Positions 24,001 to 27,000 of a stretch of DNA of 50,059 nucleotides are shown here, one piece after another. The DNA is from a virus. Taxonomy: Duplodnaviria > Heunggongvirae > Uroviricota > Caudoviricetes. The position numbers were made by a program. The stretch lies in the IMG/VR virus record IMGVR_UViG_2582580752_000008. One strand, given 5' to 3'. Each line of letters starts with the position of its first letter. Within the stretch, counting starts at the first letter, position 1.

Positions 24001-27000
24001 ATCGACAGATAAGCAGAATATTTTGCTGAAAAATGAGGTTTGCTTACATGGATGGATAACACGAAATCCTGCAAATTGGCAAAATGTAAGTGAATAAAGT
24101 CAAAACAGTTGTTTAACACTCAGGCACCGTAATGATGCCTTTGTCATTTCTGCGCATCTCACGCGCATCTCACAACACAGAACCTTTCAGGATGACCCTT
24201 GAGGATACCGGTTTGGCTGTCGGTGCCTTTCTGTGGGCTGGATTCCTGTGAGACAAGGTTCATCACTAAAAGGAAATAACCGATGAATATGATGGCCGTG
24301 CCGTTTCACGGCAACTCTCTTTATGTAGTTAACCATAATGGCGAACCATACGTTCCCATGAAACCTGTCGTTGCGGGGATGGGGCTGGCCTGGCAATCAC
24401 AGTTGGCTAAGTTAAGACAGCGTTTTGCGTCAACTATAACGGAAATCGTTATGGTTGCTGAGGATGGGAAACAACGCAATATGGTGTCCATGCCACTTCG
24501 AAAACTTGCCGGCTGGCTACAAACCATTAATCCCAACAAAGTAAAACCCGAAATCCGCGATAAGGTCATCCGGTATCAGGAAGAGTGCGACGATGTTCTT
24601 TACGAGTACTGGACGAAGGGTTTTGTCGTTAATCCCCGTAAAATGAGCGTGATGGAAGAACTCAACCAGGCTTGTGCTGACATGAAACGGGATAAAAACA
24701 TTGCCAGTGTGTTTGCTACCGGGCTGAATGAGTGGAAACAGGTTAAAGCCGCGCATGTATCAAAAATCCGTACGCTGGTAAATGAAGCGAATATGCTGAT
24801 TGATTTTGTCCTGGCTGATACAGGCAAAGGGAAAATAACAAAGGCGGATTGATGGGGTGGCTAATGATATCAGATAAACTCATAACGCTGGTGAAGAGCC
24901 TCTGTGTACTTGTCGGCATTTCATTTTCACTAATGCTGGTTGCTCTTTTTCTTTCCATGGCCTGGATGGCGTTGACTTCGGCAGGGCTGGTGGGGTGAGC
25001 ATAAACCGAATGCTTTCCGCGTTTACCGTTATTCTGCTGGTGGTCTGTGGTGCGCTTAGTCTGGGGCTGAATCATTACCGCGATAACGCCATAACCTACA
25101 AAGAGCAGCGCGATAAAAAAGTCAGTGAGCTGGAGCTGGCAAATGCAACCATTACTGATATGCAGCAGCGCCAGCGTGATGTTGCTGCACTTGATGCCAG
25201 ATACTCGAGGGAATTAGCTGATGCGAGAGCTGAAAATGAAACTCTGCGTGCTGATGTTGCCGCTGGTCGTAAGCGCCTGCGCATCAACGCCAACTGTCCA
25301 GGCTCCTTGCGTAAAGCCCCCATCACCTCCGGCGTGGATAATGCAACCGGTCCCCGACTGGCAGAAGCCGCTGAACGGGATTATTTCATCCTCAGAGAAC
25401 GGCTGATGGCAATGCAGAAGCAACTGGAAGGAGCACAGGAATATATCCGTACCCAGTGTATACCGTGATGTTTTGTTACGAAGGTGTTACTGGTAACGTT
25501 AAGGTAATTTAACAAAGAGTCAGTTCCGGACTTTATAGTGTGCTCAGTTCATGGCCAAAAACGATTTCTGTGATAAATATTTTGAATATTATTTACAGGT
25601 AAATGGAGTGGGGCACATGGATAGAAATATTACAATAGAGTATGAAGTATATGCCCGTATTGTATGGGCAGAGAAGGCAAAAACATGGTAATTCCGTGTG
25701 TTGCCATGATACCTGACTGGCAGAATTGTTGTTTGGTTTTGAGTATATAGTCAGCGTCTTTTGTTCGGTAATTGCTCTTTCAATTAAAATGCCAGATATG
25801 ATTTGCTTTTCTTTGTTGTTTAGTTTTTTTGTATATTATTTTTATTGTTTTTATATAATTAGTTTTTTATTGTTGTCTTATTAAGGACGGTAAATTCAGG
25901 ATGGCAGTCTGTAGATAAACGGAGGTTACTTATGCTACATGATCACCTGGCAGAATGTCTGGAGAAAAAAGGACTGTACCGGAGAGCAGCTGAACGATGG
26001 GCAAAAGTGATGGTACAGCTAAGTGATGACCAGAAAAGAAAAGTGGCGGCACAGAAACGAGCAGAGTGTTTGCGTAAGGCGCGCCGGACTCCGGTTTCAC
26101 CGGTGAACCTGACCGAAATAAAACAAGCGGTCAACAGACTACATTCTGAGTTGGGAATGGGATTTGAAGAGCGGCGGGTATTCCGACGATATAAAGGGAC
26201 AGGAGAACAGAATACGTCCGGAAACGCGCGGTCAAAAAAATGCTAAAAAATATCTGAGAGCGTTATTGCCTGTTACCATAAGAAAAAGCGACTTTAGTGG
26301 TCGCTTTTTGTGTCATATATAAGTCGTTTAAGTAAACCTGTCTGAACAGGTTCTCTGGTCGTGTTTGTCTTTGTTGGGTACAAATTGAGAATATTTTTCA
26401 TTAATTAATCTTCTTCTGCAGGCTTCAATAACCCACGCTGAAAAATTTCCTGAACCTTTCAGATCAAGAGCGATGTTAATTTGTTCAATCATCTGGTTTG
26501 GAAATCGGATGTTGCGGGTTGTTGTTCTGCGGGTTCTGTTCTTTGATGACATAATGTTGCCCCATATTCAGTGTTGCTGATTTGTATTATCTGAAGTTGC
26601 TTTTACGTTAATTTGATGCAGATCAATTAATACGATACCTGCGTCATAATTGATTATTTGACGTGGTTTGATGGCGTAGATGCACGTTGTGACATGTAGA
26701 TGATAATTATTATCATTTTGCGGGTCCTTTCCGGCGATCCGACCGGTTACGGGGCGGCGACCTCGCGGGTTTTCGCTATTTATGAAAATTTTCCGGTTTA
26801 AGGTGTTTCCGTTCTTCTTCGTCGTAACTTAATGTTTTTATTTAAAATACCCCCTGAAAAGAAAGGAAACGACAGGTGCTGAAAACGGGCTTTTTGGCCT
26901 CTGTCGTTTCCTTTCTCTGTTTTTGTCCGTGGAATGAACAATGGAAGTCAACAAAAAGCAGCTGGCTGACATTTTCGGTGCGAGTATCCGTACCATTCAG

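Follow-up and report, generated by a model that had tools for sequence, protein, structure and literature searches.

Pch proteins link prophage content to the expression of LEE type III secretion in EHEC. Full expression of ler and espA depends on the group-1 pch genes, and so does adherence (Iyoda and Watanabe, 2004, as cited in later papers). Activation of LEE1 by Pch takes place only under repression by H-NS, StpA and Hha; Pch lowers the occupancy of H-NS and StpA in vivo and the binding of H-NS in vitro, that is, it acts as an anti-silencer (PMC4764244). Among five Pch proteins, PchB was the strongest activator of ler::lacZ, raising the activity of a chromosomal fusion in K-12 about 8-fold, from 1,577 to 12,513 Miller units, and the coding sequences of pchA, pchB and pchC were found to differ only at nucleotides 16, 172 and 183 (PMC5931665). 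LEE expression has been proposed to depend in part on pch copy number. PerC of EPEC also activates LEE1, and was proposed to work both as an anti-H-NS derepressor and as a transcriptional activator; for LEE expression, EPEC can do without PerC under most conditions, whereas EHEC cannot do without pch (PMC4764244).

The control of the pch genes has likewise been described. Both pchA and pchB are directly activated, and differentially regulated, by LrhA (Honda, 2009, as cited in PMC4456613 and PMC13012123), and the signals placed upstream of pch include NtrC/glutamine, butyrate/Lrp and signals of the ppGpp type. For pchA, an element within the coding sequence pairs with the Shine-Dalgarno (SD) region, and binding of the small RNA DicF to this element frees the ribosome-binding site (Melson and Kendall, 2019, as related in PMC7769764, PMC7873438 and PMC9438474). 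Moreover, H-NS generally covers the virulence genes carried on prophage elements in strain Sakai.

Here, we analysed a stretch of 50,059 nucleotides (the window, hereafter) from a virus of the Caudoviricetes (IMG/VR record IMGVR_UViG_2582580752_000008), in which the original prediction, made from the sequence, had placed a PerC-homologous, Pch-like regulator in an AT-rich island just before cos. The features considered are the following (positions are those of the window):

7204-7255, minus strand: gene for the small RNA DicF, in the same prophage (Rfam RF00039, 75 bits against a gathering threshold of 48, E = 7.9e-15)
24995-25468, plus strand: Rz spanin, which closes the lysis cassette and borders the pch cassette on the left (PF03245, Phage_lysis, E = 1.3e-46)
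25221-25406: Rz1, embedded in Rz
25447-26404, plus strand: pch cassette of 958 nt, with no counterpart in lambda (blastn against lambda)
25469-25931, plus strand: AT-rich leader of the pchB type, a putative regulatory region (463 nt, GC 0.333)
25790-25885, plus strand: T-rich core of the leader (GC 0.188, T 0.625), which differs between the pchB and the pchA/pchC types
25921-25925, plus strand: SD sequence GGAGG, 6 nt 5' of the pch ATG (direct reading of the sequence)
25932-26246, plus strand: pch gene, pchB allele, 104 aa, ATG start (ORF list, Pfam and comparison with Sakai)
26019-26031, plus strand: predicted partner of the SD/start-codon region within the coding sequence, +88 to +100 (minimum-energy fold)
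26283-26309, no strand assigned: predicted bidirectional intrinsic terminator, a hairpin between an A-run and a T-run (perfect 10-bp inverted repeat)
26328-26552, minus strand: small convergent gene of the ylcI/ynfO family (Pfam DUF3950, E = 1.8e-18; NCBIfam YlcI_YnfO_N)
26752-26763, plus strand: cosN, the 12-nt cohesive end GGGCGGCGACCT (exact match)
26941-27486, plus strand: nu1, small terminase subunit, the first head gene past cos (Pfam Phage_Nu1, E = 3.9e-101)

The 104-residue open reading frame with its strong SD sequence is present as predicted, and its product belongs, as proposed, to the PerC family: it matches PF06069 with an E value of 5.4e-44 (148.8 bits against a cut-off of 22.6), residues 1-89 covering positions 1-89 of the 90 in the profile, so that the protein is a full-length member. 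In public databases the protein is named 'PerC family transcriptional regulator' (RefSeq) or 'PchABC family transcriptional regulator' (UniRef). A search by sequence returned no relative in the PDB, and a single-sequence AlphaFold2 model, with a mean pLDDT of 50.5, was too poor for a fold search.

As references for a closer assignment we used the three group-1 pch loci in the RefSeq record of E. coli O157:H7 Sakai. The coding sequence from the window is identical to that of Sakai pchB (ECs_2182, prophage Sp11) over all 315 nucleotides, and the proteins are identical at all 104 positions. It matches pchA (ECs_1091, Sp4) at 314 of 315 nucleotides, the difference at nucleotide 16 corresponding to L6V, and pchC (ECs_2737, Sp14) at 313 of 315, with V58M (codon 58, nucleotide 172); these differences fall at the published positions (nucleotides 16, 172 and 183). 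The identity with pchB extends to both flanks, with 462 of 463 positions in the leader and 158 of 158 in the 3' flank that carries the terminator, which leaves a single mismatch in the 936 nt compared. Judged at the nucleotide level, the gene in the window is thus an exact copy of pchB and represents no new variant or family member, and the alignment with PchA, PchB and PchC makes it more than the Pch-like regulator originally proposed. The gene and its product are already known, as are the targets and the main regulators, and all have been studied since 2004.

The same gene is widespread in E. coli. Of 5426 complete genomes of the species, 671 have it, the median number of copies per genome being three, and in 685 of 686 records the identity was at least 99%. 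Most hosts of an identical copy bear the label O157:H7 or O145; strains of O111:H8 and O103 carry copies that are 99.7% identical. Among 78 prophage loci from IMG/VR, the end of Rz lies upstream of pch in 73, with a leader between Rz and pch of 462-465 nt in 72 and of 422 nt in one, and cosN lies downstream in 60, about 505-513 nt past the pch stop codon. The order Rz-pch-cosN-nu1 seen in the window is also that of Sakai Sp11 and Sp14.

The identity with PchB bears directly on function. The original prediction regarded the protein as a possible activator of ler, and a protein of identical sequence, PchB, is the one that raised ler::lacZ about 8-fold (PMC5931665). PerC-domain proteins are common, however, and some have little to do with ler: PchD and PchE gave little or no activation (PMC5931665; PMC6265319), and the gene in the window could in principle encode a homologue that is inactive or acts differently, like these two or like YfdN of K-12, which barely affect ler. 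Against this, the protein is PchB residue for residue, the top ler activator in the assay referred to above, and it has both the full length of the group-1 proteins (104 aa) and their genomic position. The sequence identity with PchB already refutes the alternative, and the probability that we leave to it is close to nil. The copy in the window is therefore expected to be an activator of LEE1/ler, as published for the identical PchB. [quoted passage not shown] Within the 50-kb window itself we detected no LEE genes and no genes for type III effectors. The effector gene nleG7 was considered as part of the prophage and rejected: it is present in NZ_CP027331.1 and absent from the window, which is collinear with that record only over about 19-36 kb.

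The pch gene sits between the lysis genes and cos. In a blastn comparison with lambda, positions 25064-25446 of the window correspond to lambda 46027-46408, the homology in Rz ending at 25446, and positions 26405-26751 correspond to lambda 48156-48502, the right end of lambda, with 89.6% identity. The interruption of the lambda homology thus runs from the end of Rz to a point 347 nt short of cosN, so that the pch cassette fills the slot occupied in lambda by bor, p78 and p79. The slot between Rz and cos is a classic position for an accessory, or 'moron', gene. Past the gene, the hairpin at 26283-26309 has a predicted RNA folding energy of -14.7 kcal/mol (z = -3.6), and none of 200 shuffled sequences was as stable; it is read as a bidirectional terminator common to pch, on the plus strand, and to the ylcI/ynfO gene, on the minus strand. 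The placement of the regulator just before cos is roughly right, but cosN lies 505 nt past the pch stop codon, and the terminator and the ylcI/ynfO gene intervene.

Taken as a whole, the locus is best explained as a copy of group-1 pchB that a lambdoid prophage carries in its late operon, between Rz and cos, as an accessory 'moron' cassette, and we hold this explanation with very high confidence. Nothing contradicts the identification as pchB; the weak points concern the regulation of this particular copy.

Because Rz ends at 25468, the leader is a gene-free region of 463 nt, and no gene is annotated within it in the RefSeq annotation of a near-identical record. Its T content is 0.393, and its GC content of 0.333 compares with a mean of 0.515 for the 50-kb window; no other stretch of 463 nt in the window is as AT-rich, and the leader falls in the lowest 0.04% of segments of this length. 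An imperfect tandem repeat, with a unit of about 22-24 nt and a copy number of 2.4, was found in the T-rich core, at 25819-25874, with Tandem Repeats Finder; its score of 68 was reached by none of 300 dinucleotide-preserving shuffles, for which the maximum was 52. Both the AT-rich stretch of about 460 bp and the T-rich repeats noticed in the original prediction are therefore genuine features of the leader. A scan of positions 24900-27100 against Rfam at a permissive threshold returned only spurious matches to eukaryotic miRNAs and lncRNAs, so that no known small RNA or cis-acting element was recognised in the leader. Esr41, an EHEC small RNA acting on ler, was considered as an occupant of the leader and rejected, as it is encoded next to iha.

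Across the Sakai loci and the 78 loci from IMG/VR, the leader occurs in two discrete types, a pchB type and a pchA/pchC type. The distinction is concentrated near the gene: the last 151 nt of the leader in the window are 100% identical to pchB, 79% identical to pchA and 77% identical to pchC, while the identity with Sakai pchA and pchC is 94-97% in the distal leader, 99.4-99.7% in the coding sequence and 98-99% in the 3' flank. In 16 of 17 cases, the pchB-type leader stood in front of the coding allele of pchB. The sharp split of the promoter-proximal leader into two versions is the minor lead to emerge from this analysis (see also below).

How the gene is transcribed has to be considered in the light of this leader. 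A standard scan found no consensus sigma-70 promoter in the leader at the threshold of the tool; under relaxed settings, three weak candidates came up, to be taken as leads only. One of the three is a perfect TATAAT, which lies at 25854-25859 within the duplicated T-rich unit and is found only in the pchB-type leader. No terminator-like site was detected within the leader. As no such site stands between Rz and pch, late transcripts of an induced prophage should read into pch, and such a read-through transcript would end at the hairpin that follows the gene.

A reading in which pch has no promoter of note of its own, and is expressed only upon induction, from the Q-antiterminated late transcript, the leader being a spacer, would draw on this arrangement: the gene lies in the late operon and on the strand of the late genes, no terminator separates it from Rz whereas a strong one follows it directly, no consensus promoter was found, and SOS induction raises pch transcripts. 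However, uninduced cultures already express pchA and pchB and need them for LEE expression, the two genes respond to LrhA, NtrC, butyrate/Lrp and signals of the ppGpp type, and the leader comes in two discrete, conserved types linked to the coding alleles, as would be expected of regulatory alleles and not of a drifting spacer. We regard expression from the late transcript only as improbable. The leader most likely bears a weak, activator-dependent promoter used in lysogeny, and LrhA, documented as a direct activator of both pchA and pchB, would act on this promoter. In an O157 strain, SOS induction increased pchC transcripts 8-fold, and pchB transcripts by more than 3-fold, the latter without statistical significance (P = 0.09) (PMC5931665). 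Late read-through fits this rise of pch transcripts.

In addition to being the target of an activator, the leader may be bound by H-NS, and its composition makes it a plausible target for silencing, as originally suggested. A stronger version of this view is that the leader is above all silenced by H-NS and StpA, and that its expression calls for an anti-silencer rather than for a classical activator. The leader, and even more so its core, has an AT content well above average, its GC content being the lowest in the window; the H-NS sites of Sakai are rich in AT, and O157-specific segments, mostly those of phages, hold 189 of about 440 such sites. Furthermore, the H-NS nucleation motif, with at most two mismatches allowed, is about four times denser in the leader than in the window as a whole, although this density represents two sites only. 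On the other side, no direct H-NS-binding data and no data from hns mutants were found for any pch leader in the publications consulted, including the supplement of the ChIP-chip study; the published H-NS/StpA ChIP-chip analysis of Sakai took its baseline from a mutant that lacks pchA, pchB and pchC, and gives the comparison with the wild type as 'data not shown'. Silencing by H-NS and activation by LrhA are, in any event, compatible, as LrhA could itself be an anti-silencer. We put the chances of a leader governed above all by silencing at a little under even, and retain the weak, activator-dependent promoter as the preferred reading for this copy.

A further layer of control is predicted at translation. 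In the minimum-energy fold of the pch mRNA, the segment from the SD sequence to the AUG (25921-25934) pairs with positions 26019-26031 of the coding sequence, for all three 5' ends assumed. The extent of the pairing depends on the 5' end: the pairing probability is up to 0.76 when the transcript starts at 25860, and 0.15-0.32 with the other two 5' ends. The local fold is no more stable than those of shuffled sequences (z = -0.38). The segment 26019-26031 is our candidate for the published 'anti-SD' element of pchA. By this arrangement, translation of pch would probably be held down through pairing of the SD/start region with nucleotides at about +88 to +100 of the coding sequence, and the masking would probably be relieved by DicF, as published for pchA. 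The SD region reads GGAGGUCAC in pchA and pchC of Sakai and GGAGGUUAC in the window. Because a C-G pair becomes a U-G pair, the predicted duplex is about 2 kcal/mol weaker in the window, with -13.7 kcal/mol as compared to -15.9 kcal/mol for an SD region of the pchA/pchC type.

The gene for DicF (7204-7255) is part of the same prophage, and Sp4, the prophage that carries pchA in Sakai, likewise encodes DicF. We found no DicF site on the pch mRNA that scored above chance, whether with RNAduplex applied to the whole molecules, with an accessibility-corrected scan or with a scan of the 5' tail of DicF only: the top hits either used the terminator stem of DicF or were matched by shuffled sequences, and the best duplex with the 5' tail was reached by 8% of the shuffles. 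Since the coding sequence in the window differs from that of pchA only at nucleotide 16, the published DicF site is very probably retained.

The two types of leader are in keeping with the differential regulation published for pchA and pchB, which may have its basis in these sequences. More specifically, they may represent regulatory alleles that wire near-identical Pch proteins to different signals, an idea that we put forward tentatively and regard as rather unlikely. If it were true, the copy in the window would depend less than pchA on activators and on DicF, since the TATAAT element and the weaker SD-masking helix are both found in the pchB type only. Each prophage would then add a separate input to the control of the LEE, and not merely gene dosage, and the observation would add to what Honda et al. 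(2009) described as 'differential regulation of PchA and PchB'. Independently of the leader, the pchB allele marks the prophage in the window as a virulence-regulating element, and the value of this assignment lies in correct annotation.

The closest known relative of the locus is Sakai Sp11, in which pch has the same neighbours (antirepressor, Rz/Rz1, pch, cos, nu1 and terminase) and about 6.2 kb around pch are 99.4% identical to the window. The prophages differ elsewhere: both the early region and that of the tail tip and fibres are mosaics relative to Sp11, with 75-97% identity or no alignment. PchA and PchC of Sakai, of 104 aa each, are encoded in cassettes of the same design, following Rz, as in the window; in Sp4, however, the block formed by the lysis genes and pchA is inverted and adjoins IS629.

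More distant is PerC of EPEC E2348/69, which belongs to the same Pfam family and is encoded by the third gene of the perABC operon, adjoining perA and perB, on the EAF plasmid pMAR7. It shares 47% identity over 87 aa with the protein from the window (E = 1e-27), but, at 89 aa, it is without the basic C-terminal tail of 15 residues that the latter carries. In terms of position, the counterpart of pch is the bor gene of lambda, an accessory 'moron' gene in the same slot between Rz and cos. Like pch, bor is an accessory gene of host fitness or virulence that is dispensable for phage growth. The likeness is one of place: bor codes for an unrelated protein, an outer-membrane lipoprotein of serum resistance, and lies on the minus strand, whereas pch, on the opposite strand, codes for a regulator of transcription.

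The promoter-proximal part of the pch leader (25781–25931) was compared with the Sakai Sp4 pchA locus (L002), with L004 and with the IMG/VR pch loci in the range L007–L086. It occurs as two discrete types, pchB-type and pchA/pchC-type, which share 77–79% identity; the coding sequences that adjoin them are more than 99% identical, and for both types leader and coding allele are largely linked. Further upstream, the leader contains a small open reading frame:

25551–25691, + strand, ORF of 46 aa with a full-length match to phrog_2157 (E 1e-37), a family annotated as of unknown function

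Of 71 related loci, 69 preserve the uninterrupted 46-aa frame. From its sequence, however, it is a weak candidate for a protein-coding gene, because it lacks a Shine-Dalgarno sequence and because almost every difference among its copies changes an amino acid.

The prophage that bears pch also encodes a small RNA, DicF, the published translational activator of pchA:

7204–7255, − strand, DicF sRNA gene (Rfam, 75 bits)

Relative to what we take to be the K-12 DicF sequence, a single base differs, with GUGGCUGC in place of GUGACUGC. A second copy of DicF is found in the pchA-bearing Sakai Sp4 (L002, 5733–5784); thus, the regulator and its published target travel on one element. Other RNA genes of the prophage are as follows:

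1557–1735, + strand, RalA antitoxin of the type I toxin-antitoxin system RalR/RalA (Rfam)
14656–14830, + strand, sok antitoxin of a hok/sok-type locus (Rfam)
17000–17200, + strand, isrK/C4-antisense cluster (Rfam)
19153–19225 and 19329–19402, two prophage tRNA genes
20175–20368, + strand, STnc100-family sRNA
20369–20430, − strand, anti-GcvB sRNA AgvB

The last two lie back to back (20175–20430), preceded by the tRNA genes.

A long inverted repeat (26855–26922) separates cosN from nu1. Rfam gave nothing for it but spurious microRNA matches; by position and by its CGTTTCCTTTC motifs, the repeat would be the counterpart of the R sites that terminase binds in lambda cosB.

At the right end of the window the following were found:

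48829–49290, ORF with a truncated 3′ end, overlapped there by the transposase ORF
49172–50059, − strand, IS3-family transposase ORF
49988–50059, ALIL frameshift pseudoknot within the transposase ORF

By eye, the N-terminus of the truncated ORF looks like a ydfJ-type membrane transporter, which fits the ydfJ pseudogene that Sakai Sp11 adjoins. The related prophage of NZ_CP027331.1 carries nleG7, whereas no type III effector gene was found within the window.

Alignment of the whole window (1–50059) with the O145-type prophage of NZ_CP027331.1 (L001) and Sakai Sp11 (L003) revealed a mosaic. The early region is in part unalignable; the segment from about 20.6 to 35 kb is 97–99% identical to Sp11, and the tail-tip region (about 38.7–45.3 kb) is just 75–82% identical to Sp11 and to the O145-type prophage alike.
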